Made by a program: the position numbers and the translations under genes. Shown here in pieces: positions 9,891-59,989 of a DNA stretch of 64,000 nt. Source of the stretch: Acidobacteriota bacterium (GTDB lineage: Bacteria > Acidobacteriota > UBA6911 > JACQSX01); NCBI GenBank assembly GCA_036507075.1, contig DASXQR010000221.1, positions 1-64,000 of the forward strand. The letters run 5' to 3'. Positions within the stretch are counted from its first letter, which is position 1. Every line of letters begins with the position of its first letter. Under the pieces are notes generated by a model. That model had not been told where the DNA came from. It saw only the letters and a program-made list of their open reading frames with translations, and ran no database searches.

Positions 9891-11120
9891 TTACACAATT
9901 CTCGGCTGTGGGATTGGGATGATGAATCGACCGCCCTTCTGCTGATAAATTTCCTGCTGCCTTAAAATCTCATCCGCAAAATTCCAAGCCAGAAGCAAAA
10001 CATAATCGGGCATTTCTTCAAGAAGACGAGTTGGTGGAGAAATCTGTAAATGATTGCCACCCATATACCTGCCATGTTTAAAGCCATTCAAGTCAACTAC
10101 ATAATCTACGAGGCTCTTGTTAATTCCGCAGTAGCTCAGCAATGTGGTTGCTTTTGCAGCAGCTCCATATGCGGCGATTCTCTTGCCTGTTCGTTTGAGG
10201 TCCCAGAGGAGGTCCATCAGTGAACTCCGGATCTCTCGGACGCGTTCGGCGAAATCACGATAGTAATCGATTTGACCCATCCCTTTTTTGGTCTCCTCCT
10301 GCAGCAACAGCCGAACGGAATCAGTCACCGCCTCCCTGGGCTCGACAAACAGCCGGAGGGAACCTCCATGGATAGGGACGTGCCTAACCGCATTGAGATA
10401 GAGAGAATGGCTTCTGAAGAGCCGGTTGAGCGCAGTAACCGAAAAATAGCAAAGATGTTGATGATAAATGGTGTCGAATTCGCAACTTTCGATCAGATTA
10501 ATCAGGTATGGCACCTCGATGACCGCCACGCCCGTATCCTTCAAGATGGTCCTGATTCCTTCCACAAAGCCGTTGAGATCTGGAACATGGGCCAAAACGT
10601 TGTTGGCGATCACTACATCGGCCACGCGGCCTTCGCTTCGAAGTTGTGCAGCAAGTTCTCGGGTGAAGAATCTGCAAAGTGTCGGAATCCCTTCTTTTTG
10701 GGCAGCTTGAACCGGAGCTTGAGCCGGGTCAATTCCCAGAACCGGGATCCCACTTCCTACGAAATTTCTGAGCATGTAACCGTCGTTGCTGGCAATTTCA
10801 ACAACCATACTGTTTGAATCGAGCCCTCTCGATCGGATCAATTCCAGCGCATTTTCCCGTGAGTGCTGGAGTAGCGCGCTGGAAACGGAGGAGAAATAGG
10901 GATAATCCTCGCAGAATAGGATTTCCGGAGGTACTGTTTCCGTGATCTGAACCAACGTGCAATTCGGGCAAAATACCAGATCCAGCGGAGCGGTCAACTC
11001 CTGCTGTTCCAATTGCAGCTCAGTAACGAGGCGATCGGCTAAAGGGGTATTGCCAAAGGACAAAATTGGCTGCAGGTTTCCATAGTCACACGAGCGACAG
11101 CTAGACATTGAATTTGTCAT
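9891..11120 (-). CDS. NDP-hexose 3-C-methyltransferase family protein (copy 1)
   Basis: CRSC...[45 protein letters not shown]. Start refined to ATG 11120 (GGAGGG RBS). Confidence 0.88.
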
Positions 11121-11122
11121 CG

Positions 11123-12187
11123 TCAAATCCCTCCAATAGCGGCGCCGGTTGCTGCGGCCGCTCTCCCGGTCCACCGCAAAGTGGGATCCAAACGACCAAT
11201 ACGGATTAAATGCTTAATATGGTCAAGCCGCCTGTACCGAATGCCCTCAAAATCCCCCAGCCGCAACCCGACCTTCTGAAAAGCTGCGTATAATTGTCTC
11301 GCCCCCTTTTGGGCGGTCCACTGCGGTTTGAATTGGGCAAGGGTACGAGGCAATTTACTGCAATCAACTCGATAGCATCGTTTGTCTGGCCCTGCGTCTT
11401 TTGCATACTCCACGTGGCAACCCGTCACCGTTTCCCGTACAATCTCAGCCAGATCTCGGATTTGATAATTCTCTTCGCTAAGGCCCACGTTAAAAGCCTC
11501 ATTGTGCACCACGTCTCGAGGAGCGTGAAGTGCTGCGATAAAGGCGCGCGAGATATCCTCAATGTGAACAATTGGGCGCCAAGGTGTGCCGTCGCTCTTA
11601 ATGTGCACCCGACCGGTAGTGAACGCCCACGCCACCAGATTATTAAGTACCAGGTCGAAGCGTAAACGTGGCGATAATCCGTATGCGGTTGCATTACGCA
11701 GAAAAGTCGGACTGAATCTGGAGTCCGCAAGGCGCGACAGGTCGCGCTCTACCAGAACTTTTGAATGTCCATACGGCGTAACAGGCCTGAATTCAGCTTG
11801 CTCGTTTATCATGTTTTCACCCGAGGCACCATACGTGCTGCAGGAAGATGAAAAAAGGAAGCGTGTGACCCCCGCCCTTTTGGCAAACCTTGCCAGACGC
11901 ACTGAAGCTGCATAATTAATCTCGTAAGTCAGCTGCGGATCAAGATCTCCCAGTGGATCATTTGAGAGGCCGGCCAGATGAATTATGGCGTCAAAGCCAT
12001 CCAAATCGGCCGCCTGAACGTCCCGCACATCCTTTTTCAGCGCTGGAACATTGACAATTGCGTCTCCAAAGGTGCACTGCTCATAAAGATCACTGTCCAA
12101 ACCAACCACATCATGACCTTCGGCTACCAGCATAGGTACCATCACGGTGCCGATATAACCCGTGTGCCCTGTGACAAGAATACGCAT
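11123..12187 (-). CDS. NAD-dependent NDP-sugar epimerase/dehydratase (extended SDR)
   Basis: [26 protein letters not shown]. Start refined to ATG 12187, just after the rfbF stop. Confidence 0.88.
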
Positions 12188-29878: not shown

Positions 29879-30292
29879 TTAGGGAACAAATGGGCTCAGG
29901 ATGGTCAGCCGCCTTACAAAAGATCTTGGTATATAAGCGATTTCGTTGTTAGCGTCCTTGTCTGAGGGCCACAGGTAAAAACCATGTAGATTTTGTAGAT
30001 CCACATTGTTCTTGACTGCTCCCTCCAAAATCTCACCATCCACGAGCTCGACTCGTACCCAGATCTTCTCGCTGATCGGTTGCTTGGTGAAAAACTTAAA
30101 TTCTTCGTGCTTCGGATCTCCGTCAAAATCTTTCACGAAAAAAATGGCCTTGATATCTTCAATGTTAAAAACTTCATCTTTTCCCTGCCTCGTTAGGATC
30201 CCCACTTCGTCTTTGATAGTGTCCTCCCTGGCAAAGCCAGCGGTGACTTTCCCATCTCGTGTTCGAACTATAACCTTCCTTAGGGAGCTCAT
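29879..30292 (-). CDS. Small two-repeat beta protein (DUF6982-like), paralogue A
   Basis: KVIVRTRDG..GF, KAIFFVKDF, DGEILEG, NNEIAYIP; highly similar to 32186..32593. Confidence 0.75.
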   Translation of the reverse strand: MSSLRKVIVRTRDGKVTAGFAREDTIKDEVGILTRQGKDEVFNIEDIKAIFFVKDFDGDPKHEEFKFFTKQPISEKIWVRVELVDGEILEGAVKNNVDLQNLHGFYLWPSDKDANNEIAYIPRSFVRRLTILSPFVP

Positions 30293-30704: not shown

Positions 30705-32120
30705 TCAAATCGCAGGTCTAATTTCGTACTGCTCGATCTTTGTGAGGAGGGTTTTATAGCTAACCTTAAGTTCTTTAGCTGCAGCCCATTTATTCCAATT
30801 GGTTTTACGAAGGGTCTTTGAAATCATGTTCCTTTCGACCACAGCAGCAGCTCTTTTGCCAATTTCCTTCAAAAACAAGTCGCCTTCATTCTCCTCCAGG
30901 TAAATGTCCACCAGCTCATCTAATTCCTCGGATGTTTGGCGAGAAGTCTTGGTTTCCAGCTCCAGTCGAATGGATTCGGTGTCGCCCAGGACAACATAGC
31001 GCTTGATTATGTTTTCCAGCTCGCGAATGTTCCCTGGCCAGTGATACGTTTCAAACAAACTGTACAGCTCCTCAGGAAGTTGGCGAACCTCAGCGTTATA
31101 GTACTTACCAAATTTCTCGAGAAAATACTGACAGTAAAAGCTAATTTCATCCTTTCGCTTCCGCAGTGGGGGAATTTCGATATTCACCACATTTAGTCGA
31201 TAATACAAATCTTTTCGAAATGACCCCTTTTCGATTGTTTCTTCGAGCCTTTGATTGGTAGCAGCGATAACCCGTACATCGACTTCTACTTCCTGGTTAC
31301 TGCCTAGACGAGAAAACTTTCCGTCCTGAAGCACCTGCAGCAATTTTGCCTGGGTTGAGGGCGTGAATTCGGCGATTTCATCCAGGAAAACAGTGCCGCC
31401 GTTGGCAAATTCAAATTTGCCAGGCCGATCAATGTAAGCCCCTGTGAAGGCTCCCTTTTCATAACCAAAAAGCTCACTCTCAGCGAGTTCAGCTGGCATG
31501 GCTGCGCAGTTAACCTTCACAAAGGGGCGATTGCACCATTGGGAATGCTGATGAATGGTTCGTGCAACGATATCTTTGCCCACACCACTTTCTCCCTGAA
31601 GTAACACCGGGATTCGCGCATTGGCAATTTGGAGAATGGTATCAAGAATTTCCTTCATCCTTGGATTGCAAAAAATAAACTCGACCTTCCCATCCTTTTT
31701 TGTCGGGCGTTCACGTGCACATTCATTTTTCGGTATCTTACGTGTGATTTCGTCAATTGTATGATCCAACTCTTGGATGTCGAAGGGTTTTAACAAATAA
31801 TCGCGGGCCCCAGAACGGATGGCCTTTACCACGCTTTTGGGATCGCTCAGGGTTGTCAAAATCACAATCGGGACCGAACCAAGTTCACGACAGATATCCT
31901 CCAGGTCCTCTGATTCCCTGTGACTTGAAAGTGGATCGATAAATATGACGTCGGGTTGGATTTTGCGCTCATTGATAAGAGTTCTTGCTGCATCCCAATC
32001 GGGAGTTGTCATCACCTCATAGCCACTGGAGCCCAACTTCCTGGTCACATACCTTTGAAATGCGTCCTCATCGTCTATGAACAAGACTTTGCGTGGCTGG
32101 CCAGTCTCTGCGTGCATCAA
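30705..32120 (-). CDS. NtrC-family sigma-54-dependent response regulator
   Basis: Receiver (FIDDED, VIFID, KPF), AAA+ (GESGVGKD, GAFTGA, LDEI, WPGNIREL) and HTH; GGAGGG RBS. Confidence 0.93.
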   Translation of the reverse strand: MMHAETGQPRKVLFIDDEDAFQRYVTRKLGSSGYEVMTTPDWDAARTLINERKIQPDVIFIDPLSSHRESEDLEDICRELGSVPIVILTTLSDPKSVVKAIRSGARDYLLKPFDIQELDHTIDEITRKIPKNECARERPTKKDGKVEFIFCNPRMKEILDTILQIANARIPVLLQGESGVGKDIVARTIHQHSQWCNRPFVKVNCAAMPAELAESELFGYEKGAFTGAYIDRPGKFEFANGGTVFLDEIAEFTPSTQAKLLQVLQDGKFSRLGSNQEVEVDVRVIAATNQRLEETIEKGSFRKDLYYRLNVVNIEIPPLRKRKDEISFYCQYFLEKFGKYYNAEVRQLPEELYSLFETYHWPGNIRELENIIKRYVVLGDTESIRLELETKTSRQTSEELDELVDIYLEENEGDLFLKEIGKRAAAVVERNMISKTLRKTNWNKWAAAKELKVSYKTLLTKIEQYEIRPAI

Positions 32121-32185: not shown

Positions 32186-32593
32186 CTACTCGGTGCCCAG
32201 AATGGTGAGCGCTTTGATGGCAGATTTTGGAATGTAAGCCAGTTCGTTATTGGCGTCGTGGTCGGAAAGCCTAAGATACAGGCCCAGGGAATTCAGCAGT
32301 TCCCCGTCGTTTTTGACGGCGCCCTCCAAAGTCTCGCCGTCAAAGAACACCACTCTCACCCATAGCTTCTCGCTGATTGGTTGTTTCGTCAGGAAATCGA
32401 CTTCCTCATATTTGGGGTCGCCCTGAAAGTCTTTTACAAAAAAAATGGCTTTCAGGTCTTCCGGAGTAAAAATCTCTTCCTTGCCGTCTCTTGTGATGAC
32501 CTTGACGCAATCCTTTATCTTGTCCTCTCGGCTGAATCCGGAGACAACTGTTCCCTGACAAGTCCGGACGATAACTTTACCTAAAGCGTTCAT
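32186..32593 (-). CDS. Small two-repeat beta protein (DUF6982-like), paralogue B
   Basis: Same motifs as 29879..30292 (KAIFFVKDF.GDPK, TKQPISEK, LEGAVKN, DANNE). Confidence 0.75.
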   Translation of the reverse strand: MNALGKVIVRTCQGTVVSGFSREDKIKDCVKVITRDGKEEIFTPEDLKAIFFVKDFQGDPKYEEVDFLTKQPISEKLWVRVVFFDGETLEGAVKNDGELLNSLGLYLRLSDHDANNELAYIPKSAIKALTILGTE

Positions 32594-32644: not shown

Positions 32645-32734
32645 GTAGAGACGGCCCGCTCGGCCGTCTCATTCTTAGACGTAGAGACGCGGCGTGCCGC
32701 GTCTGAACTCTGACGCGGCATGCCGCGTCTCTAC
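32645..32734. repeat. Cluster of GTAG-type REP-like palindromes
   Basis: GTAGAGACGGCCCGCTCGGCCGTCTC, GTAGAGACGCGGCGTGCCGCGTCT, and inverted GACGCGGCATGCCGCGTCTCTAC. Confidence 0.75.
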
Positions 32735-32773
32735 GGTATCGATTCAAGGGGACAAACCTCTATAAAATTGGGA

Positions 32774-33388
32774 TCAATTTGCTTCAAGACTGCGCAGCAC
32801 CACGGAGATCGGTCTTTGCCCCTCGATCTCCACCAGGAGCCGAAGCCCGCTGCCCCCTTCAAAATCGAGATGGAATTCGCCAAACTGATTGGTAACCGTT
32901 CTGGCAACCAACTTTTTTTCCCGCACCAGGAATATCGAGGAGGCCCTAATTCTCCGGTGGGGCCTGGCGGAATTCAGTACTTGTCCTGCCAGAGAAATCC
33001 GGTTCGATTCGGACTCTGAATCCACGCGCGTATCGATCAGGAAATTCCCCGCCCTGTAGAGGGCCTGCCGTGCGGGCCGCCTGGAATTGCGCAATCCCGC
33101 AGGTGCAGGCTGGCGGAGACTATCAAAGATCAGCCGCGCAACACTCATTTTTCCGGAGGGGATTCTCCACACTTCCGCGAAAAGGGCCTTTGCCCGACGA
33201 ACCGTGTTTTCAGGCGGCTGGTAGAAAAATTCCCTGGTCGCGACGTTATGGACGCTTCGCCAAATTTCCAAAATTTTGGAGCATTTCTCGCAGCCATGAT
33301 TGAGATGACTCTGCATTGCCGACCTTTGGTCCGCCGGTATAGTCTGGCGAGCGAAATCGGCCCAGTCCTCTAAGCTGAAGTGCTTCAT
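32774..33388 (-). CDS. Soluble anti-sigma-like protein: N-terminal zinc finger (H-x4-C-x2-C) plus C-terminal transthyretin/carboxypeptidase-regulatory-like beta domain
   Basis: MKHFS..SHLNHGCEKC resembles the zf-HC2/ZAS motif; LIFDS..PAGLR; LAGQVL, TNQFGEFHL; no TM segment. Confidence 0.7.
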   Translation of the reverse strand: MKHFSLEDWADFARQTIPADQRSAMQSHLNHGCEKCSKILEIWRSVHNVATREFFYQPPENTVRRAKALFAEVWRIPSGKMSVARLIFDSLRQPAPAGLRNSRRPARQALYRAGNFLIDTRVDSESESNRISLAGQVLNSARPHRRIRASSIFLVREKKLVARTVTNQFGEFHLDFEGGSGLRLLVEIEGQRPISVVLRSLEAN

Positions 33389-33504
33389 CTAACACCTTTC
33401 CCTGAAAGCAGATTTACCTCCGTTCATTCTCAGCACCGAACTTCTTGCCATCTATGAAGAAGGGTAGGCAGCGAGCAAAAAAATATAGGCACATAAAAAA
33501 TAAT

Positions 33505-36393
33505 CTAATTAGACGAGGCAAAGGCCTTGCCGACAAGTGCGAAGGGAGCCCAATAATAGGGATGAGCATAGCGCTGGCGCAAGTCCAGCATTGCCTCACG
33601 CAGCGCCAGCGCCTTCTGGCCATGCTGCCGCAATCGACCGTAGAAAGACTTCATGAACTCGGCTGTACTTGCATCGTGAACGTCCCACATTGTCAACAGC
33701 AGGGTCTGTGCTCCCGCGTACAGCAGACCTCGAGCCAGGCCCAGTAACTCGTCTCCTCCAGCGACCACGTTCAAACCGGTGGCACACCCGCTCAGTGTCA
33801 CCAGTTCCACCGGCAATTTCAGTTTATACAGGTCATACAGGTTCAGATAGGAGCCGCCCAGGCGAATGGCCGAAAACATGGGGTTGTCCTGCCGGAAAGA
33901 ACCATGCGTAGCGATGTGAACCACCCGGCTGGTCGGGCCTTTCCGGCTGAGGACCGCCTCGTTCGCTTCAGAGCCGAGAAAAACCTCAGAGCCGGGAAGC
34001 ATGGCCGCCACCGATTCAACCTCTTGCAGGATGGACGGCGCATGCAGATCGGGAACTCCCAAAATCAACGATGGGCCTGTGGCATTGGCAGATTTGCGGT
34101 GGCAATTGGCATAGATGTCGGCACTTGGAGCATAAGAGAGCGTAAACGAATCGATAAGATATCGCTTTCCGTCAAACAGGGCTTGAAACGGCAGATAATG
34201 CAGGACACCGTGCGGCACCATGACAAGATGAGTTCCCTGCAGGCGCCGACGCACCGGGGCTATCAGCTCGTTGTATAGCTCGCGCAGATGAGCATTTGTG
34301 GCGCTCAGAAAGGATTCCCTGAATGTGGCAATATAGTCCTCGCCAAGGCAAAATTTGGCTAATTGAAAGCGCAGCATGCGCAGCATGCCGGTCACTCTGG
34401 ATAGAGAGGTCACCGGCAGGATTTCAAGTCTTTTTCGCGTGAGCAGCGCCGCGACCACACGGTCATCGACGCGGAAGTACTCCACGATGGTGGTATCGGG
34501 GGTCAAAGCGGCCCGTATTTCCTCCACGCTCGAGACCGCAGGCGGATGCAGCGCGACATGCTCCGGTTCCGACGGAGGGAGATCTCGGAGCAGATGTTGC
34601 AATTCACCTTCGCGCGCGCGGGCCCGATCTTGAAGTTGCTCGATCCGCTTCGGGGAGAGCTCTTCCCACCGAAGCTGTTCCAGCTCAACACGGCGATAAC
34701 ACCAGTTTAGCTCCTCGCGCAGATCCCGGATTCGCCGGACCAGTTCGCTCTGGTCCCGTCCCGATTTTCCAGCAGGCAGAGGGTGCGCGCGTCCGAAGAT
34801 CAGGTCTCTCAGACTGCGTGACTTCGCCTGCTCGATATAGCCAAAAGCATTCTCCGTTGTTACCAGGTTTGAATCCCCGCGCAAGTGGAGTCTCACGAGG
34901 CCCTCGTAAACCTCCTGCTTGTTCTTCATGAACGCAATCTTGAGCTCTTCGGCGCGGAGGCCGGTGTGTAGCTTTTCCAGCGTGCGGCGGGCCTTCTGAT
35001 AGCAATCGCAGGCTTTCGCAACGTCTCCAGCAGTGTCCTGGATCCGGCCCATCAGGATGTGCGCCTGATAACTGAGGATCGGTGATTCAATCTTCGCCAG
35101 TTGCATCAGAGCCTCCGAGCAATGCCGGCGTCCGGACGCCAAGTCATTGGCGTAAACGGACAGCCGCGCCAGCAGCAGCTTGCAGAGAACAGCTTTGCCG
35201 GGGAGGATGGACGAGCCGAAGAAGTCCAGCGCGGCCACGGTCAATTGCCGCGCTTCAAAAAATCGGCCGGCGTTGAAAAGCACCAGAGCCTGATACAAAT
35301 CGATGAGTGACGGCCAGACGCGGTTCTTTTCCCGAACAAACATGCCTCTCGCCTGCCTGAAAAGATCCAATGCCCGCGAAATGTCTTTCTGTTCGCTTCT
35401 CGCAATGGCCAGGTTCACCAACGACTTGGCGGCCTCGTACCCCATTCCGAGGCGCTGGAATTGGGTAAAACCTTCCTGGGCCATTTCCGCCGCTTCCTCA
35501 ACCAGATTCAGTTCAAGGAAGATTTCTGATTGATCCAGGTTGCACAAGGCCAGGTGGTAAGCATCGCCGTATCTACCGCACGACTCGCGCGTGGCGCTCA
35601 ATAACTCGATGGCACGGCTGTATTCTCCTCGCAGGTAATACAAGTAGGCGATGTTGTAGTCGGCCTGTACCGTCAGCAGCACCAGCCCGTGCTGTTCGCT
35701 GAGAGCACGCGCATTCTGATAGGCCTCCAGGGCCCGGTGAAAATCGTTCAAGCTGATCAGGCATACCGCCATGTTGTGAAGAGTCACTGCGATGCCTTCG
35801 ATGTCTTGATAAGGCAGCAGTTGTTGATAGGCGCGTTCGTAGCAGGCGAGGGCATCCGCGAACCGGTCCTGGCGGTGCAGAATATTCCCGAGATTGTTCT
35901 CCAGACGGGCCAGGCGCCGGTTTTCACGTTTCTCGGTGAAGATCTTCCGGGCCAGCTCGGCCGCAGTGTAGGCCTGCTGGTATTCGCCCAGAAGAGCAAG
36001 CGGTTGGATGGATGAATTCAACGTCCTTGCCACTTCGTTGTCCCGGCCCAGTTCACGGAACAGGACCAGGCACTGTTCATGCAGATCAACCGCGGAGCGA
36101 TTTTGGCCCATGAAATACAGCGCATTCGCCTTGGCACGCAGGCTTATCGCCAGAGTCTCTTTATTGTCGATTTCTCGCGCTACCGCCACAGCGGCCTCGG
36201 CCAGCCGGAGAGACTGTGGCACGTCCACTCTGAGGTGATCATAAACGGCTCTGGCGAGCTTTTCGGCCACGTCCGCGCGAAGCAGCCGCTGGTGCCGGCG
36301 CAGAAATCTTTGTCTTCCAGCCTCGTCTGGAAGAGCCGCGATCTTTTCGAAAAGTTTCTCGGTGCGGGGGTTTTTTACCTCTTTTGATTTCAC
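33505..36393 (-). CDS. TPR-repeat CHAT-domain (caspase-like) cysteine protease
   Basis: Many TPR-like helical repeats, coiled coil, VPHGVLHYLPF, catalytic His in HIATHG, catalytic Cys in LSGCATG, HPYYWAPF. GTG start at 36393 overlaps the sigma stop (GTGA). Confidence 0.92.
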   Translation of the reverse strand: MKSKEVKNPRTEKLFEKIAALPDEAGRQRFLRRHQRLLRADVAEKLARAVYDHLRVDVPQSLRLAEAAVAVAREIDNKETLAISLRAKANALYFMGQNRSAVDLHEQCLVLFRELGRDNEVARTLNSSIQPLALLGEYQQAYTAAELARKIFTEKRENRRLARLENNLGNILHRQDRFADALACYERAYQQLLPYQDIEGIAVTLHNMAVCLISLNDFHRALEAYQNARALSEQHGLVLLTVQADYNIAYLYYLRGEYSRAIELLSATRESCGRYGDAYHLALCNLDQSEIFLELNLVEEAAEMAQEGFTQFQRLGMGYEAAKSLVNLAIARSEQKDISRALDLFRQARGMFVREKNRVWPSLIDLYQALVLFNAGRFFEARQLTVAALDFFGSSILPGKAVLCKLLLARLSVYANDLASGRRHCSEALMQLAKIESPILSYQAHILMGRIQDTAGDVAKACDCYQKARRTLEKLHTGLRAEELKIAFMKNKQEVYEGLVRLHLRGDSNLVTTENAFGYIEQAKSRSLRDLIFGRAHPLPAGKSGRDQSELVRRIRDLREELNWCYRRVELEQLRWEELSPKRIEQLQDRARAREGELQHLLRDLPPSEPEHVALHPPAVSSVEEIRAALTPDTTIVEYFRVDDRVVAALLTRKRLEILPVTSLSRVTGMLRMLRFQLAKFCLGEDYIATFRESFLSATNAHLRELYNELIAPVRRRLQGTHLVMVPHGVLHYLPFQALFDGKRYLIDSFTLSYAPSADIYANCHRKSANATGPSLILGVPDLHAPSILQEVESVAAMLPGSEVFLGSEANEAVLSRKGPTSRVVHIATHGSFRQDNPMFSAIRLGGSYLNLYDLYKLKLPVELVTLSGCATGLNVVAGGDELLGLARGLLYAGAQTLLLTMWDVHDASTAEFMKSFYGRLRQHGQKALALREAMLDLRQRYAHPYYWAPFALVGKAFASSN

Positions 36394-37004
36394 TTGAAAC
36401 CCTTCTTCTCCAAAGCCTGCTTCAGTCGTTTCAAACATCGCATCCGAATGAATCCGACAGAACCCGTCTTGAGTCCCAGTCTGGCGGCAATATCCTGATA
36501 TGGACGGGCCGGCTCTTCGAAGAACAGCATCTGAAGCAACTGATGGCAGCGCGGTGACATCTCCAACAAAGCCTCGCGCAGGATCTGCTCGCGCTCGAGC
36601 TGGTGCAGCACATCCTCAGGTAAATCCCCGTCCGTCTGAAGGGACGTCTCCTCGTGTAACTCTACGGCCGCAAACCGCCTGTGATGCCTGTTGTGATGAA
36701 AACATCTGTGCGAAGCGACCTTGATCAGCCATGCCGGCAAAGCCCGTGGCTGTTGCAGCCGCGGCAATTCGGAAAGAAGGTCCAGGCAAACCCCCTGAAA
36801 AATGTCGCTGGCGTCCTCCGGAGATAACTGATACTTGATGGGGATAGAGAAGATCAGATTCTTGTATTTATCAATCAGCGCCGACCAGGCTTCGTTGCTC
36901 CCTTTGAGACACTCACGAACCAGACGTTCATCCGTCCAGGACACCTTTCCTGCCCGAGCAACTTTGATTTCTGGTCCACTGGCAGCCTTTTGACGAATTC
37001 TCAT
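36390..37004 (-). CDS. ECF-type RNA polymerase sigma factor
   Basis: DERLVRECL..AWSALIDKY, DASDIFQ, WLIKVA (region 2); YQDIAARLG..GSVGFIRMRCL (region 4). Confidence 0.9.
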   Translation of the reverse strand: MRIRQKAASGPEIKVARAGKVSWTDERLVRECLKGSNEAWSALIDKYKNLIFSIPIKYQLSPEDASDIFQGVCLDLLSELPRLQQPRALPAWLIKVASHRCFHHNRHHRRFAAVELHEETSLQTDGDLPEDVLHQLEREQILREALLEMSPRCHQLLQMLFFEEPARPYQDIAARLGLKTGSVGFIRMRCLKRLKQALEKKGFK

Positions 37005-38764
37005 GGCACATTCTTGCGAATGAAAAGCTGCTCTGCATTCCAGAGGACGTAATCGTCCAATACCACAGGCCGCAGGTTTCCAACCTTCTCTCTGGCCGCC
37101 ACCAGGATGTTCGGGCTTGCCAGACAGATCATCGGCTGGTTGTCGGCCATCAGTTGCTGCACTCTGTCATAGATGCGTTTACGCTGCTGATAGTTGGGAG
37201 TGATCAGTTGCAACTTCATCAGCCGATCGATCTCGGCCTCCCAGGCGGTCGCCGGATGGCTCTGCCCGACATTCCAAATGTGCGTCCGGCCGCTCGACAG
37301 CATCACGTTCATTTCGGAATTCGGATCCGCGTCACCGCTGGCCAGGGAGAGAATGGCGGCCTCGTAGTCGTAGGTACGAAGTGCCCGGTCTATGACGGTG
37401 CGAAATTCGAGGCTTACCACATTTACCGTCATTCCGAGCTGCTTTAAGTCGTCCTGAATTATTGTCGCCATCTGTCCGCGCTGCGTGTTTCCCGCGCTGG
37501 TCAGGATGGAAAATTCAACTTTTTGGCCGCCTGCGTCGGCAAGAGCTCCGTCCTTCCAGGAAAAGCCGGCGCTCTCCAATAATTTCCGGGCGCGCTCGAG
37601 CGAACGCTGGGGCTGTGCGATGGCGCGGTTGACCCAGAGCGTGTTGGCGGGCGTCACGTGAATGGCCAGAGGCGCAGCTCGCCCCTTGTAAACGAGCTGG
37701 GTGATTGCCTGGCGATCTATCGCTGCCGACACAGCCTGGCGGAATTCCGTCTGGCGGAACCAGGATTGTTTCCGTGAAATGTCGGTCAGGCCCTTCGACC
37801 GTAGATCGTTCAGATTGAAGAACAAGAAATTATATTCAAAGCCCGGTCCCAGATCGAAGAGCTTGTAATCGCCCGGCCGCTGCAAACGCTGCAGCACGGA
37901 AAAGTTCTGCGCCCCCACCCGGCTGACGATGTCGACTTCGCCGCTCTGGAAACGCATCACCTGCGCATCCTCGCTTGGACTGGGAACAAATACCACCTCG
38001 TCCAGGTAAGGCAGACGATTTCCGTTCTGATCCGACTTCCAGTAGAAAGGGTTGCGCCGCAGCACCAGTTGCTGGCCCGGAACATAGGCATGCAGTTGAA
38101 AGGGACCGAGGCCGGCAATTTTGTCGGGTGGCGTGTTAAGGCTCCAGACCTGGCGCAACAGGCCCTGCTGGTAATCCTTTTCCAGTAGATGACGCGGAAG
38201 GATGGCAATGCTGTCGAAAATCCTTTCCGCAGCGGCATAAGATCGCGCCAGCTCGAACATCACTGTGTGATCGTCAATCTTTCGGCACTGTATCGGTGTG
38301 TTCTCCACCACGAGCAGATCGCGCTGCGGGGCGCCCACTTTTTCATCCAGATAGACTTTGAAGCTGAAGGTCACGTCATCGGCTGTGAATGGAAAACCAT
38401 CAGAAAACTTGATTCCACGTCGCAGGTTTAATGTATAGCGGCGAAGATCGGGCGAAACGGCCCACGAAGTGGCCAAGGCGGGCTGGGTCTGAAGTGTGGA
38501 ACGATCAATGTGAACCAGATCCCCCATCAGGCGGTAGATTACCTCACGCGAAGGCAGATCAAGGGCGAGGACCGGATTCAAGGTTTTTGGCTCACCGCGC
38601 TGTGAGACGATCAGCCTGCCGCCCTGGTTGCCGGCCGGCGTTTTGCTAACCAGCAGCTCTTCACGCCCGGGGCGAGCCGGTTGAGACCCACCCGACGGGA
38701 CAGTCGCAACCGCTGCAGCCAGCAGACACAGTGCGAGATTTCTTGCGAGCCAAGCATGACTCAT
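37001..38764 (-). CDS. Opp/Dpp-family (SBP family 5) peptide ABC transporter substrate-binding protein
   Basis: Signal peptide, EPKTLNP, FSDG.PFTADDV.FS, GLGPF, RNPFYW, PYLDEV. Confidence 0.9.
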   Translation of the reverse strand: MSHAWLARNLALCLLAAAVATVPSGGSQPARPGREELLVSKTPAGNQGGRLIVSQRGEPKTLNPVLALDLPSREVIYRLMGDLVHIDRSTLQTQPALATSWAVSPDLRRYTLNLRRGIKFSDGFPFTADDVTFSFKVYLDEKVGAPQRDLLVVENTPIQCRKIDDHTVMFELARSYAAAERIFDSIAILPRHLLEKDYQQGLLRQVWSLNTPPDKIAGLGPFQLHAYVPGQQLVLRRNPFYWKSDQNGNRLPYLDEVVFVPSPSEDAQVMRFQSGEVDIVSRVGAQNFSVLQRLQRPGDYKLFDLGPGFEYNFLFFNLNDLRSKGLTDISRKQSWFRQTEFRQAVSAAIDRQAITQLVYKGRAAPLAIHVTPANTLWVNRAIAQPQRSLERARKLLESAGFSWKDGALADAGGQKVEFSILTSAGNTQRGQMATIIQDDLKQLGMTVNVVSLEFRTVIDRALRTYDYEAAILSLASGDADPNSEMNVMLSSGRTHIWNVGQSHPATAWEAEIDRLMKLQLITPNYQQRKRIYDRVQQLMADNQPMICLASPNILVAAREKVGNLRPVVLDDYVLWNAEQLFIRKNVP

Positions 38765-38804
38765 CGCGCCCCCCTTTTTGGCTAGCGCGTTACGCTTGAG
38801 TGCG

Positions 38805-39821
38805 TCAAAGCCGCATTTTTATCGTATTTGCAAGAGTATAGTACCCCCAGATAAGAGGAATCAAGGCAAGCCCGGGAATGAACATCCACCAGTACGATAG
38901 CAGTACATGGTACTGCTGAAGAGTCGAGAGCATGTTTCCCCAACTCGCAGTGGGTTCGCTTACTCCCAGTCCCAGGAAAGAGAGTGTCACTTCCGCCAGG
39001 ATATATTGCGGGATAAGAACAGAGGCTTGCGTGAGCATAACTCCGCGTGTCTGGGGCGCTACGTGACGCCCGACCAGGTAGGCGCCGGAAGCTCCAAGTC
39101 CGCGCGCCGCCACAACAAAATCTTTCTCCTTGGCGCTCAGCACCACGCCGCGAATCAGCCGAGCCGGCCGAGCCCAACCAAGAACTCCTATAACAACCAC
39201 CACCAGCAGGAAAGCTTTCCCGGCTGAAACGTGAAGCGGCATCACCGCCCGCACGGCAAACAGCAGGTAAAGCCACGGAAGCGCCATGAAAACCTCGGCG
39301 CACCGCATTACTACTTCATCCAACCATCCCGCCTGCAGTCCGGCCATCATCCCCAGCAGGAAGCCCAGGCCCAGCGAAAGAGCGGTGGCAGCCAAACCGG
39401 CCGCGATGGAAATTTGACCGCCGAAAAGCAGCCTTGAAAACTGATCGCGGCCAAAATCGTCGCTGCCGAACAAAAAAATTCGGCCGGGTTCGTCCACTCC
39501 GAACAGGTGCCATCGCGTTGGAAATAACCCACCGGCTTTGTAGCCGTGGCCCCTGACCATCCATTTGATCGGGTAGACTTGCGAACGCTCCTCCTCATAA
39601 GCTTCCGGATTGTGCGGTTGCGCCCGAACACCATAGACGAAAGGCCGCAGATGAAATCTCTGGTAGCGATCAAAAAAATGAATTCTGGTGGGAGGCGCAA
39701 ACGCGAGCGTCCGGTTTTGCATGGTCGGATCGTAAGGTGAAAAGAATCCCGCAAAAAGAATCAAACCGTGCCACAGGGCCAGACTCGCCCCTGCAAAGCG
39801 AAAGAGCCGTTTTGGATTCAT
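38805..39821 (-). CDS. OppC/DppC-type ABC permease
   Basis: True start MNPKR at 39821 (ATGA overlap with OppB); GSDDFGRDQFSRL, EAA loop FVVAARGLGAS, LSFLGLG, SWGNML. Confidence 0.9.
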   Translation of the reverse strand: MNPKRLFRFAGASLALWHGLILFAGFFSPYDPTMQNRTLAFAPPTRIHFFDRYQRFHLRPFVYGVRAQPHNPEAYEEERSQVYPIKWMVRGHGYKAGGLFPTRWHLFGVDEPGRIFLFGSDDFGRDQFSRLLFGGQISIAAGLAATALSLGLGFLLGMMAGLQAGWLDEVVMRCAEVFMALPWLYLLFAVRAVMPLHVSAGKAFLLVVVVIGVLGWARPARLIRGVVLSAKEKDFVVAARGLGASGAYLVGRHVAPQTRGVMLTQASVLIPQYILAEVTLSFLGLGVSEPTASWGNMLSTLQQYHVLLSYWWMFIPGLALIPLIWGYYTLANTIKMRL

Positions 39822-40786
39822 TGCTTTGCCCGAATCCGCGGGTCGCTGGCATACAGCAGCAGGTCCGCAATCAGATTTCCACCGGCGAGAAAGGCAGTCG
39901 ACAGGAGGACGCAACCGACCACCAGATGAAAATCTCTGGCAAGGATGGCTTCCAACAGCAGGCGACCCAGTCCCGGCCAGCTCATTACGATCTCCACCAG
40001 CAGTGAAGAACTCAGCAGCTCGGAAATGGATAAGCCGAACAGCGAAATCACCGGATTCGCCGAGGCCCGGAGCGCGTGCCCCACCAGGAGACGAGAATCG
40101 GGCAAACCGCGCGCCCGAGCGGCTAATATGAACGGGGAATCGAGCACGTCGGAAACAGCCCTGCGAACGTGCGGCAGCAGCATTGGCAATGTCACAAGAA
40201 CCAGGCACAGAACCGGAAGGACCAGATGGGCCATGAGATCTCCGGTTGTGGTCCCCCAGCCGCGAGAGGACAACGCCGTAGAAGAAATACCGCCCACCGG
40301 CAACAAACCGCTGCGCAGCGCAAACAAAAGCAGAATCAGCGCTAGCATCAGGTGGGGAATGGCGAGAAGAATCACGTTCGCGCCGCCGAACAGAATATCC
40401 TGCCACTTGCCTCGACGGGCAGCGATCCAGGCGCCCGTGGGAATAGCGATCAGCCAGGACAACACCATGGCCGTGACGGTCAAAAGCAGTGTATTGGCGG
40501 CTCGATGCCAAAGCAGAGGAGCCGCCGCCATGTTATACGCCACGGAGAATCCCAGATCGCCGTGGGCGACCGATCGAGCCCATTGAGCGTATTTGACTCC
40601 TATCGGCTGGTCGAGTGCGTATTTTGCCTTGAGATTAGCGATGGTTTGCTCGGATACCTGAGGATTCAGCCGCAGTTCATCCAGGAAGTTTCCGGGAGCG
40701 ATCTCAAAGAGTAGGAAGGTCAGAACAGAAACTGCCGCAAGCAGGAATAAGCTGTTTATGATCCGCCGCAGACAGTAGCGGATCAT
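39818..40786 (-). CDS. OppB/DppB-type ABC permease
   Basis: MIRYCLRRI, LDQP, GDLGFS, AARARGL, WPGLG, NLIADLL..SDPRIR. Confidence 0.9.
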   Translation of the reverse strand: MIRYCLRRIINSLFLLAAVSVLTFLLFEIAPGNFLDELRLNPQVSEQTIANLKAKYALDQPIGVKYAQWARSVAHGDLGFSVAYNMAAAPLLWHRAANTLLLTVTAMVLSWLIAIPTGAWIAARRGKWQDILFGGANVILLAIPHLMLALILLLFALRSGLLPVGGISSTALSSRGWGTTTGDLMAHLVLPVLCLVLVTLPMLLPHVRRAVSDVLDSPFILAARARGLPDSRLLVGHALRASANPVISLFGLSISELLSSSLLVEIVMSWPGLGRLLLEAILARDFHLVVGCVLLSTAFLAGGNLIADLLLYASDPRIRAKQ

Positions 40787-40793
40787 TTTGTGC

Positions 40794-42104
40794 TCACTGC
40801 TGGGGCGTGGTCACTTGCCCGAGAGACTGGACAGCCTGGAAAAGATCGAGTCGGCCCTGTCCTAAGTCTTGAGAAATCCACTTGGCATGGGCAATTGCGC
40901 CTGCCGCCTGTGAAGGACTGCAGTCGGGTTGAAGGTCTAAGAGCAGCGCTACAGCTCCGGCGACGAACGGGGCGCTGAACGACGTCCCCCAGGCAGCGGC
41001 ATACTTGCCGTACGGATAAGTCGTCACTATGCCTTCGCCTGGCGCCGCCACCCATACAAACCCGTAATTGGAGAATAATGACCGTTGATCAAGGTTGTCT
41101 GTGGAGGCAACACATATCACATTATTGAGCGCTCCAGGGTAGACAGGCGTGCTGCTTCCATTGTTTCCTGCCGATGCGACCGGGATGACTCCTCTGGCGG
41201 CCGCATAATCAATCGCTTCCTGCAGCTCGCTGGAGTAGGTCGAAAAACCGAAGCTCATGTTCAGAATCTTCGCGTTCTTTTGCACGCTCCTGTAGATGGC
41301 TCGAAGCACATCGGACATGTAACCCATTCCGCTGGCCTGGAAGGCCTTCATCGGCATAATCATGGCTCTGGGCGCAACCAGATGGATGACCCCTGCCACC
41401 ATGGTCCCATGGCCGAATGCGGCATACTGCAGGCTATTTAACTCGCCAGCGGCGATCTCGTCGACCAAGGCTGCCGTTGATTGATTGACCCAGGCTGGGT
41501 CGAATTCAGACTGATCGTCTACAAGGGCCGCCGTAGACTGGTCCAGATCTCCCCTTTCTGAACCCGTCTCATCCAGATCGCGCGTGAAGTCGTACCCCTT
41601 AACTAGAAAATTCATCAACACCGGATGATTGGGGTCTACTCCCGTGTCGATCACCGCGACAATGCCGGACCCTCTTACGTTGAAGGCATTCTGAGTGTCT
41701 GAAATCCTTACGATCGCGTTGGCCGGCTGCTCGACATAGCCGCGGCGCACTCTCTGGCCGAAAAAGTCGACGGGCCAGGCGTCGGTCAGGGCTGGAGGAA
41801 TGGCGTAGGCAGGGGTTGCCAGTGCTATTGCCAGAATATCCAGCTCGGCGTTGGAAACGCCGGGCTGGGCCCGCAAAGTCGCGAGGAACGCATCCGGATC
41901 GACCAGGTCTGAAGTAGATACAAGGAAAACCTGGCCAAGGGACTCATCCAGTCCACGCTGTACGTTGCATCCGATCACAGCGCAGATTGTTTGCAGCGGC
42001 CCGTTTCCACCCGGCACGCGCGCAATAAATCGTTTCTCGGCGGAAACGAGACTCGACGAGAGGAGCCAAAAAAGAAAGACACTGCAGCTAAGCCTGCGAT
42101 TCAC
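40794..42104 (-). CDS. Secreted subtilisin-like S8 serine protease with an internal repeated octapeptide
   Basis: GTG start at 42104 (AAGGAGA RBS) gives a signal peptide. Triad IDTG / HGT / GTSFSAP, oxyanion AGN; QSTAALVD twice between the catalytic Asp and His. Confidence 0.9.
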   Translation of the reverse strand: MNRRLSCSVFLFWLLSSSLVSAEKRFIARVPGGNGPLQTICAVIGCNVQRGLDESLGQVFLVSTSDLVDPDAFLATLRAQPGVSNAELDILAIALATPAYAIPPALTDAWPVDFFGQRVRRGYVEQPANAIVRISDTQNAFNVRGSGIVAVIDTGVDPNHPVLMNFLVKGYDFTRDLDETGSERGDLDQSTAALVDDQSEFDPAWVNQSTAALVDEIAAGELNSLQYAAFGHGTMVAGVIHLVAPRAMIMPMKAFQASGMGYMSDVLRAIYRSVQKNAKILNMSFGFSTYSSELQEAIDYAAARGVIPVASAGNNGSSTPVYPGALNNVICVASTDNLDQRSLFSNYGFVWVAAPGEGIVTTYPYGKYAAAWGTSFSAPFVAGAVALLLDLQPDCSPSQAAGAIAHAKWISQDLGQGRLDLFQAVQSLGQVTTPQQ

Positions 42105-42407: not shown

Positions 42408-42442
42408 GTTCGTGTAATTCGTGGAATTCGTGTAGTTCGTGC
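42408..42442. repeat. Short 9-mer tandem repeat (TTCGTGTAA-like)
   Basis: ttcgtgtaa ttcgtggaa ttcgtgtag ttcgtgc, immediately after the pntB stop. Confidence 0.6.
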
Positions 42443-47198: not shown

Positions 47199-47215
47199 GC
47201 CTGTCCAAGTCTGCG

Positions 47216-47355
47216 ATCCGCGATCCCCGCTAGAATCCGCGGCCGACCTTCAATCCCCGATCCCCGCGAAAATCCGCGGCCGACCTTCAATCCGCGATCC
47301 CCGCGAAAATCCGCGGCTGACCTTCAATCCGTGATCTCCGCGAAAATCCGCGGCC
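47216..47355. repeat. 37-bp tandem repeat (about 3.8 units) between convergent genes
   Basis: Unit atccgcgatccccgcgaaaatccgcggccgaccttca at 47216, 47253, 47290 and a partial unit at 47327; no spacers. Confidence 0.85.
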
Positions 47356-47359
47356 CAAT

Positions 47360-49807: not shown

Positions 49808-49864
49808 GGTCATCGGTCATTGGTCATTGGTCATCGGTCATTGGTCATCGGTCATCGGCTATTG
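49808..49864. repeat. Heptamer tandem repeat (GGTCATC/GGTCATT)
   Basis: About 8 units; the reverse complement of the TAATGAC/CAATGAC units at 45443 and 50043. Confidence 0.8.
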
Positions 49865-58098: not shown

Positions 58099-59691
58099 AT
58101 GAAGATTCGATCCCTCAGCCTGTGCCTGCTGTTCATTTGCGCGGCATTATTCGGTCAGACCGGCCCGCCCGAATACGACATTCTGATCCGCAACGGCCGC
58201 ATTCTGGATGGCGCCGGAAATCCCTGGTTCCGCGGCGACGTCGGGATCCGGGCAGGGATCATCGAGGCGGTCGGCCTGTTGGACCGCGCCGCAGCACGCC
58301 GCACCATCGATGCCGCCGGCCATGTTGTCGCCCCGGGTTTCATTGACATTCACACCCACGCGCGGCGCGCCATCCTGGAGGTGCCCACCGCTGAAAACTA
58401 TATGCGGCAGGGAGTGACAACCTTGATCGAGGGCAACGATGGCAGTTCACCCCTGCCCTTGAAGCCCTTCCTTGACAGGCTTCGCGAAAAGGAAATCTCG
58501 CTCAACTTCGGCCTGTTCGTGGGGCAGGGTACGGTTCGCGAACGCGTCATGGGGTCTGTCAATCGCGCTGCGACGGCCGAAGAGCTGCAAAAGATGAAAG
58601 ATCTGGTTCGCGCGGCCATGGAAGATGGGGCTTTGGGCCTGAGCACGGGCTTGTTTTACGTCCCGGGGAATTTCACGCCGACGGAAGAGGTTGTCGAGCT
58701 GGCGCGAGTGGCTGGATGCCTGGGTGGTATTTATATCTCGCACATGCGCGATGAAACGGCAGGAGTGTTGGAGAGCGTTGCCGAGACGATTGCCATCGGG
58801 GAACGCGGTGGGCTGCCGGCTCAGATCACGCATCACAAAATCATCGGCCCCAAGAACTGGGGCCGCAGCGTGGAGACACTGCGGCTGATTGAAAACGCCC
58901 GCGCGCGCGGAGTCGACGTCACCCTCGATCAGTATCCTTATACTGCCTCCAGCACGGGCATCGCGTCTCTGCTGCCTCAATGGGCGCAGGAGGGCGGTCG
59001 CGATCAGATCCTGAAGAGACTTTCCGACCCGGCAACGCGCGCGCGAATCAAAGCCGTCGTCGAGGAAAACATACGTGACAACCGGGGCGGAGGAAACCCG
59101 GAAAACATCGTCATCTCTCGATGCGAATGGGACACCAGCCTGGAGGGAAAGAGCCTGGCGCGAATTACACGGGAGCGCGGCCGCGCCCCAAGTATTCCCA
59201 ATGCGGCGGAAACGGCAATGGATATCGTTACGCACGGTTCTGCCCAGGGGGTATTCCATGCCATAGATGAACGCGATGTGGAACGGATCTTGAAGTACCC
59301 GATGACCATGGTCGCTTCCGACGGCGAGGTGACAGTTCCCAGGCGCGGCGCCCCGCATCCGAGAAGTTATGGAACGTTTACCCGGGTGCTTGGCGTGTAC
59401 GTGAGAGAGAAACATACGCTGGCCCTGGAAGATGCAATTCGAAAAATGTCCTCGCTTCCTGCGCAGCGGATCGGTCTCAATGGTCGTGGCCTGCTGCGGC
59501 CGCGTATGAGAGCCGACATTGTCATCTTTGATCCCGAACGAGTGCGCGATCGCGCTACTTTTGCCAGCCCGCATCAGTACGCCGACGGCTTCACCTACGT
59601 ACTGGTCAATGGCGCACTGGTGCTCGACGACGGCAAAGTCACGGCTGCGCGGCCAGGGCAGATTCTGCTCGGGCCGGCGGCGCGCCGATAG
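58099..59691 (+). CDS. N-acyl-D-amino-acid deacylase (D-aminoacylase) family amidohydrolase, secreted
   Basis: PGFIDIHTH, STGLFY, SHMRDE, DQYPY, ASDG, HPRSYGTF, ADIVIFD. Confidence 0.9.
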   Translation: MKIRSLSLCLLFICAALFGQTGPPEYDILIRNGRILDGAGNPWFRGDVGIRAGIIEAVGLLDRAAARRTIDAAGHVVAPGFIDIHTHARRAILEVPTAENYMRQGVTTLIEGNDGSSPLPLKPFLDRLREKEISLNFGLFVGQGTVRERVMGSVNRAATAEELQKMKDLVRAAMEDGALGLSTGLFYVPGNFTPTEEVVELARVAGCLGGIYISHMRDETAGVLESVAETIAIGERGGLPAQITHHKIIGPKNWGRSVETLRLIENARARGVDVTLDQYPYTASSTGIASLLPQWAQEGGRDQILKRLSDPATRARIKAVVEENIRDNRGGGNPENIVISRCEWDTSLEGKSLARITRERGRAPSIPNAAETAMDIVTHGSAQGVFHAIDERDVERILKYPMTMVASDGEVTVPRRGAPHPRSYGTFTRVLGVYVREKHTLALEDAIRKMSSLPAQRIGLNGRGLLRPRMRADIVIFDPERVRDRATFASPHQYADGFTYVLVNGALVLDDGKVTAARPGQILLGPAARR

Positions 59692-59989
59692 AATGCGGAA
59701 TGTTGAATGCGGAATGCGGAATGTTGAATGCGGAATGGGGAATGGGGAATGGGGAATGGGGAATGGGGAATGCGGAATGTTGAATGCGGAATGCGGAATG
59801 GGGAATGGGGAATGGGGAATGCGGAATGCGGGATGCTGAATATGGGAATGCCATATATATCCAAAGTTTCCTAACTGAGATCAAAATCAATCCCAATTCC
59901 GCATTCCGAAATCCGCATTTAAAACAGATTTCACTATCGTCCTCTATATCAATCCCCGATTCCGCATTCCGAAATCCGCATTTAAAACA
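59691..59989. repeat. Heptamer tandem array (GAATGCG/GAATGGG/GAATGTT) with downstream complementary repeats
   Basis: More than 20 heptamers at 59691-59851, then two copies of attccgcattccgaaatccgcatttaaaaca (about 59896 and 59959). Confidence 0.85.

Follow-up and report, generated by a model that had tools for sequence, protein, structure and literature searches.

The window, by which we mean the whole 64,000-nt stretch of DNA analysed here, contains a real and conserved cassette of seven genes, a variant of the ECF54-type core, in which an S8 subtilase and an Opp importer lie beside an ECF sigma factor, a TPR-CHAT protease and a small zinc anti-sigma-like protein. The subtilase bears two copies of an octapeptide, QSTAALVD, and from the comparisons given below it is likely to serve as the precursor of its own octapeptide signal. 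We lean, with modest confidence, towards the view that the cassette acts as a proteolytic switch gated by a peptide: TPR-CHAT would read the S8-borne octapeptide, and the ECF sigma factor would be freed as a result.

Gene content and layout of the cassette

All seven genes lie on the minus strand, at positions 32774-42104 of the window, in the order S8, oppB, oppC, oppA, ECF, TPR-CHAT and 204-aa protein (Table 1). An earlier note on this DNA had described seven co-oriented genes with tight junctions and two proteases with intact catalytic residues, and in this it was borne out. The gene families were confirmed by Pfam and NCBIfam, the junctions read identically in the sequence (7 bp, ATGA, 40 bp, ATGA, GTGA and 116 bp, in cassette order), and the S8 triad and the CHAT dyad proved invariant in homologue alignments (D153, H232 and S375, plus N314, among 50 S8 homologues; H830 and C870 among 30 CHAT homologues).

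Table 1. Position and assignment of the features of the cassette (window coordinates).
Feature	Position	Strand	Basis
S8 subtilase, 436 aa	40794..42104	-	Pfam PF00082 Peptidase_S8 1e-43
OppB-type permease	39818..40786	-	Pfam BPD_transp_1, NCBIfam
OppC-type permease	38805..39821	-	Pfam BPD_transp_1, NCBIfam
OppA-type family 5 solute-binding protein, cassette-linked subgroup	37001..38764	-	SBP_bac_5 PF00496 1e-79
ECF sigma factor, overlaps both adjoining genes	36390..37004	-	TIGR02937 over cut-off; Sigma70_r2/r4
TPR-CHAT cysteine protease, predicted cytoplasmic, 962 aa, GTG start	33505..36393	-	CHAT 5e-64, TPR_12
204-aa soluble zinc anti-sigma-like protein	32774..33388	-	no Pfam family for protein alone; profile matches, model
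Octapeptide copy 1 QSTAALVD, S8 residues 189-196	41517..41540	-	exact repeat
Octapeptide copy 2 QSTAALVD, S8 residues 208-215	41460..41483	-	exact repeat
Bipartite promoter-like motif 5' of anti-sigma gene, candidate ECF promoter	33457..33488	-	pattern match
27-nt inverted repeat 3' of anti-sigma gene	32680..32735	.	repeat search

The inverted repeat that follows the anti-sigma gene is possibly a transcript end or a REP-like element. A pntAB pair lies upstream of the cassette. Downstream come a DUF6982 gene, a regulator of the sigma-54 type and a cluster for exopolysaccharide. The DUF6982 gene is one of two paralogues with 65% identity (29879-30292 and 32186-32593) that stand around the sigma-54 response regulator (30705-32120), and this set heads the PEP-CTERM-like exopolysaccharide cluster (1401-29526). 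A functional tie between cassette and cluster is unsupported: the neighbours are different in the relatives listed, and DUF6982 adjoins 1 of 20 regions in one set and none in a second. Short tandem repeats occupy intergenic stretches of the window at 59677-59869, 47211-47358, 49808-49864 and 42409-42441, with units of 7, 37, 7 and 9 nt, respectively.

An octapeptide that may be a released product

The S8 protein starts with what looks, by eye, like a signal peptide, followed by a prodomain and by an insertion between the catalytic Asp and His that carries the octapeptide repeats; the spacing between these two residues is 79 residues with the insertion included. The nearest solved relatives are Ak.1 protease and thermitase, and the AF2 model reaches a pTM of 0.88. 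From a motif alignment, we take Val321 to be the counterpart of subtilisin position 166, which gives no sign of an Asp-specific pocket and so speaks against self-release of the Asp-ended peptide by S8.

The coding sequences of the two QSTAALVD copies are separated by 6 substitutions in 24 bases, none of which alters a residue. Across the S8 proteins compared, copies are identical within one protein in 27 of 32 pairs and between proteins in 58 of 598, as counted over the first 7 residues of 14 distinct repeat signatures with at most 4 copies each, whereas at the codon level, in six genes looked at, the copies are 2.7-6.7 nt apart per 24. The octapeptide pattern, which was derived from the same alignment, matches 135 of 137 S8 sequences, near-duplicates included. 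Number and position vary: one relative, L050, holds 15 exact copies of QSTGAILD plus variants (~16 in all), nearly all of them at the prodomain junction, and in L051, L132 and L140 the motif is found both at this junction and in the Asp-His loop. Distant relatives of the cassette carry other tandem peptides at the prodomain junction, such as PRTIVFID twice or GQSWSV four times (10 of 20 distant cores, by eye), and no repeat was seen in the S8 proteins of four distant cores (L054, L055, L056 and L058).

In the genome to which the window belongs (G000), a six-frame motif scan confined the full octapeptide motif to the S8 proteins of two cassettes, and no separate small peptide gene was found by motif in the six frames. 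The second of these cassettes (L001:455-6497, contig C51) is cut by the contig end and comprises CHAT (60%), anti-sigma (39%), S8 (61%) and stand-alone HD-GYP genes; its S8 carries QSTAAVVD three times, and a second ECF of the cassette family was not found in the G000 assembly. A peptide whose copies vary together, and which shifts its position and grows in number, behaves as a released product would. It is from the identity of the copies despite their diverged codons, the ~16 copies of one relative and the two different positions that S8 appears likely to be the precursor of its own signal.

Two further features of the L050 locus deserve mention. Its S8 (10075-11976), with the QSTGAILD-type copies, has a spacer that is repeated thrice, and by eye the stretch separating CHAT from anti-sigma contains an activator-like frame of the sigma-54 type.

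On the side of the putative receptor, the TPR region shows conserved Asn residues at a spacing of ~40 residues (N90, N167/N170, N207, N247 and N327). Asn ladders bind extended peptides. Three basic residues of the same region, R86, R160 and R163, are invariant in 16-17 of the 17 rows of the close clade and variable in the 13 distant rows, and the clade in which they are fixed is also the clade with the Asp-ended peptide. As for RRNPPA receptors, there is a weak match to RapJ (E 5e-5). In a CHAT tree built by a quick method from 36 hand-picked rows, with peptide labels given by eye, QST-type loci form one group (16 rows, support 100) and Trp-hexapeptide loci another (8 rows, support 100); we rejected this grouping as an indication of CHAT-peptide co-evolution because kin share labels. 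The G000 genome also holds two large tandem PDZ-TPR-CHAT genes (L002:4893-12520, contig C152), in a layout unrelated to the cassette.

Part of the S8 loop may be structural. Copy 1 falls in a low-confidence loop of the AF2 model (pLDDT <50 at 190-199), copy 2 is a predicted short strand (210-213, pLDDT ~80), and this order goes together with the conservation of P203, V206, A212, D215, A219 and Y227 across the 50 homologues. The ordered copy 2 would suit a rather unlikely explanation, in which the octapeptide acts within the S8 molecule itself, either as a self-cleavage site or as an autoinhibitory pseudo-substrate, and CHAT still cuts the anti-sigma in response to another peptide or protein. 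The ancestral position of the repeat is the prodomain junction, where subtilases self-process, and one protease recognising one site would also yield identical copies. However, the many copies in L050 are hard to square with a single activation site, one genome (G291) has two cassettes, L052 and L053, with different peptides, and only the clade with the Asp-ended peptide has the basic TPR residues, all of which speaks against this explanation.

A soluble anti-sigma-like protein and its exposed loop

The family profile of the 204-aa protein matches RsiW (E 8e-6), the zinc domain of DdvA (E 1e-4) and ChrR. Pfam finds zf-HC2 in 8 of 28 family members and CarboxypepD_reg in 14 of 28, and the window protein alone matches neither. 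The zinc ligands, of HxxxCxxC type with one extra spacer residue, are conserved in 100% (H28) and 99% (C33 and C36) of 148 sequences. The structural model begins with three helices and ends in a carboxypeptidase-regulatory-like beta-sandwich, and the two parts are joined by a loop of low confidence at ~90-106; a wide VIA search with this model returned only beta-sandwiches of a generic kind (Z 8.9 for the best, with an rmsd of 1.9 over 77 aligned residues) and barely probed the N-terminal domain. The protein has no membrane segment (maximum hydropathy 0.70), and TPR-CHAT has no hydrophobic segment above 1.45. The RsiW and DdvA matches back the soluble anti-sigma proposed in the earlier note, and at the level of sequence the assignment as a zinc anti-sigma-like protein, predicted to inhibit the ECF sigma factor, is supported.

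Within the loop, G98 and R100 are conserved in 93% and 99% of the 148 sequences, and the adjoining residues vary. Separase cuts after Arg, but craspase sites vary (PMC11506125), so that Arg100 is a candidate only for the CHAT cut site. The module made of loop and sandwich also occurs in fusions with a receiver-like domain (E 1e-6 to 0.03, under the Pfam threshold), and since these fusions precede the same type of S8 protein, the module may be a portable CHAT substrate tag. Fusions of the module to a receiver stand directly 5' of a QST-type S8 in L071-L075, L080, L109, L110, L115 and L144, often with no CHAT nearby, as is the case for many receiver-S8 pairs among the metagenome loci. L086 and L102 hold both forms, the anti-sigma and the receiver-like fusion.

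Conservation of the core and place of the importer

Fifteen loci were retrieved with CHAT, all from Acidobacteriota records, two of them (L014 and L015) from one genome; related genomes are not independent of each other. ECF lies directly before CHAT in all 15 and the anti-sigma gene is present in all 15 (directly downstream in 14); S8 and oppABC are each found in 14 and oppD/F in 13, which makes the usual unit one of nine genes. Of 40 regions retrieved around weaker matches, 20 contain the full distant core (ECF, anti-sigma, CHAT and S8). Conservation of the whole neighbourhood, which the earlier note had proposed as a check, is found in the close clade, with S8 and Opp each beside ECF and CHAT in 14 of 15 loci, but fails for Opp at a distance, where the retrieved stretch is free of Opp genes in 17 of the 20 complete cores and includes adjoining ones in 3. 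From these 17 cores, Opp is an accessory that lies outside the ancestral core. Opp genes also adjoin four incomplete distant loci, and one locus of the close clade, L010, has no Opp. Where Opp genes lie beside cores other than those of the close clade (L057, L063, L066, L150, L154, L155 and L161), they are of more distant types.

The S8 profile retrieved 80 metagenome loci, many on short contigs (29 loci of at least 8 kb), with an anti-sigma-type module in 60, CHAT in 32, ECF in 20, HD-GYP in 18 and oppA in 15; all 15 loci with oppA also have CHAT. S8 occurs with no other cassette gene in 2 of the 29 longer loci (L117 and L137). A single-domain HD-GYP gene lies 3' of S8 in L006, in L049 and in the 18 metagenome loci, hinting at c-di-GMP as an output.

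At the window locus the importer is incomplete, for no ABC ATPase gene is present there: oppD/F are absent beside oppABC. The genome has three sites with Opp permease or binding-protein genes for a single oppD/F pair, which stands alone, without permeases, at C83:10485-12769, so that shared ATPases are the likely explanation. The other Opp genes of the genome lie on contigs C221, C228, C179 and C232.

A search of 401 genomes of the phylum (a set that includes G049, marked as unpublished, also among those with an OppA match) found the ECF family in 34, the anti-sigma family in 25 and OppA relatives in 83, mostly without the cassette. Identity to OppA exceeds 50% in just three of these genomes, G147, G014 and G400, each of which carries the cassette. 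An ECF match on a Streptomyces plasmid (H1) was discarded as a cassette member, as it sits in a fatty-acid/polyketide cluster.

A motif of two boxes ~18 nt apart is matched in front of most anti-sigma genes (15 of 16) and of most S8 genes that lead an operon (8 of 10), by a pattern that was fitted after viewing the sequences and counted without a shuffle baseline, the window's own S8 upstream region lying outside the test. We regard it as a candidate ECF promoter. Its presence before the S8-opp operon at these 8 of 10 loci is what one would also expect of a nutrient-scavenging regulon, in which ECF induces a secreted protease and an importer as outputs, and TPR-CHAT senses whatever peptides are imported. 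The distant OppA relatives in mostly cassette-free genomes, and the distant cores that do without an adjoining Opp, can be read in the same way. Still, we judge scavenging decidedly unlikely, because it leaves unexplained both the concerted octapeptide repeats and the restriction of the closest OppA proteins to genomes with the cassette.

Relation to known systems

The earlier note had presented the system as possibly undescribed, which does not hold for its four-gene core: this is already in print as the context of ECF54 (PMC7826278, PMC8999054). In Actinobacteria, ECF54 adjoins a carboxypeptidase-regulatory-like protein, a subtilase and a TPR-CHAT protein, and the group is described, in the accessible text, as 100% actinobacterial and as having no putative anti-sigma (PMC7826278, Casas-Pastor et al. 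2021); a review entry mentions that proteolytic control has been proposed (PMC8999054). The cassette resembles ECF54 in all these neighbours. A locus of Nonomuraea gerenzanensis (L170) is matched by all four core profiles (ECF 9e-39, +1 protein 1e-9, CHAT 6e-51 and S8 0.005), from which we conclude that the core is homologous and, as a context, known; the window-type and actinobacterial ECFs in this context match at 34%. At this ECF54-type locus (L170:3676-9030) CHAT reads in two frames. Its S8 has no evident signal peptide and its +1 protein no zinc motif. Unlike ECF54 as its available description has it, the relatives of our cassette are Acidobacteriota, a zinc anti-sigma domain is part of the +1-type protein, S8 starts with what looks like a signal peptide, and peptide repeats and a linked Opp are present. 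The literature searched, which was mostly open-access, yielded no study of this circuit, and in it neither the octapeptide nor a link to Opp nor a role as anti-sigma is described.

Little is understood about TPR-CHAT proteases despite their wide distribution (PMC11506125), and those characterised in the papers cited are tied to phage defence (PMC10028731, PMC11506125, 10.1101/2023.06.23.546230). In type III-E Craspase, the TPR-CHAT protease Csx29 cuts the sigma inhibitor Csx30 (PMC10028731), and a type III-B cascade offers a further protease-to-sigma precedent (10.1101/2023.06.23.546230). The cassette shares with the Craspase system of Csx29, Csx30 and CASP-sigma a TPR-CHAT with a His-Cys dyad, and we propose that it is alike in having a cytoplasmic, allosterically activated TPR-CHAT that cuts a soluble sigma inhibitor in an autoregulated locus (PMC10028731). 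Unlike Craspase, it has no Cas7-11, array or Csx31, and its proposed trigger is a peptide instead of RNA. With DdvS/DdvA of Myxococcus xanthus (PMC11506125) it shares an ECF, a zinc anti-sigma domain and a TPR-CHAT in one circuit; DdvA, however, is a single protein that spans the membrane and has its TPR-CHAT part in the periplasm, whereas the cassette encodes separate proteins, soluble by the hydropathy maxima given above, and adds S8 and Opp.

As the characterised TPR-CHAT/sigma systems are all linked to defence, the cassette could be an anti-phage or damage response akin to Craspase and DdvA/DdvS. The proteases would then be switched on by infection or by damage to the envelope, and ECF would induce defence genes. 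The Csx29 model does match TPR-CHAT, weakly and far under its cut-off (38.5 bits against 300). We nonetheless hold a defence role to be highly improbable. In line with the CRISPR-free locus of the earlier note, there is no CRISPR-like array among the 5 direct-repeat families of the window and no cas gene among the window ORFs scanned (most, not all, of those of at least 150 aa). PADLOC gave only weak or generic matches, to 6 proteins, and the neighbours that recur, HD-GYP and receiver proteins, suggest signalling tied to lifestyle.

A peptide-gated switch has a parallel in RRNPPA systems, whose peptides are re-imported by Opp and stem from a small dedicated propeptide precursor, and whose outputs are of the DNA-binding or phosphatase type. 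In the cassette, by contrast, S8 itself would be the precursor and a caspase-like protease would be the output, and there is no small propeptide gene beside the receptor, the gaps within the cassette being only 7, 40 and 116 bp. As RRNPPA systems do, the cassette would export a precursor, mature it by proteolysis and sense it through a TPR receptor in the cytoplasm; RRNPPA is described in Bacillota (PMC9765709, PMC11343458), and the cassette is found in Acidobacteriota. RRNPPA propeptides, too, may hold several pheromone copies (PMC11343458, PMC9765709). On the features tested, the cassette stands outside Craspase, DdvA and RRNPPA, and it is likely to work like a blend of them.

A proposed circuit and its meaning

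The circuit that we infer runs from release and import of the peptide, through TPR binding and anti-sigma cleavage, to sigma release. QSTAALVD would be cut from exported S8, by S8 itself or by another periplasmic peptidase, and would be imported by OppABC, powered in G000 by the single orphan OppD/F pair. Once inside, it would bind the Asn-lined groove of the TPR region and activate CHAT, which would cut the anti-sigma within its exposed loop, most likely after Arg100. The freed ECF would then transcribe the cassette from the shared motif, giving positive feedback. The octapeptide could either travel between cells or report on the periplasm of the cell that made it.

More broadly, and more tentatively, with chances that we put slightly short of even, the cassette may represent a new class of diderm peptide signalling. 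In such a class, a secreted protease would double as a polyprotein pheromone precursor, its peptide would be re-imported by Opp and received by TPR-CHAT, and a portable substrate module would serve varied outputs (zinc anti-sigma or receiver) through cassette-specific channels. It would be a CRISPR-free counterpart of Craspase, and would account for the ECF54 context.

The cassette offers candidates for the ligand (QSTAALVD), the substrate (the 204-aa protein), the cut site (Arg100) and the promoter, which makes the activation of a bacterial caspase-like protease by a peptide testable in one tube. If our reading is true, the context of ECF54 would be explained, orthogonal peptide-activated proteases would be on offer as tools, and intracellular peptide quorum sensing would extend past Bacillota to an abundant soil phylum.
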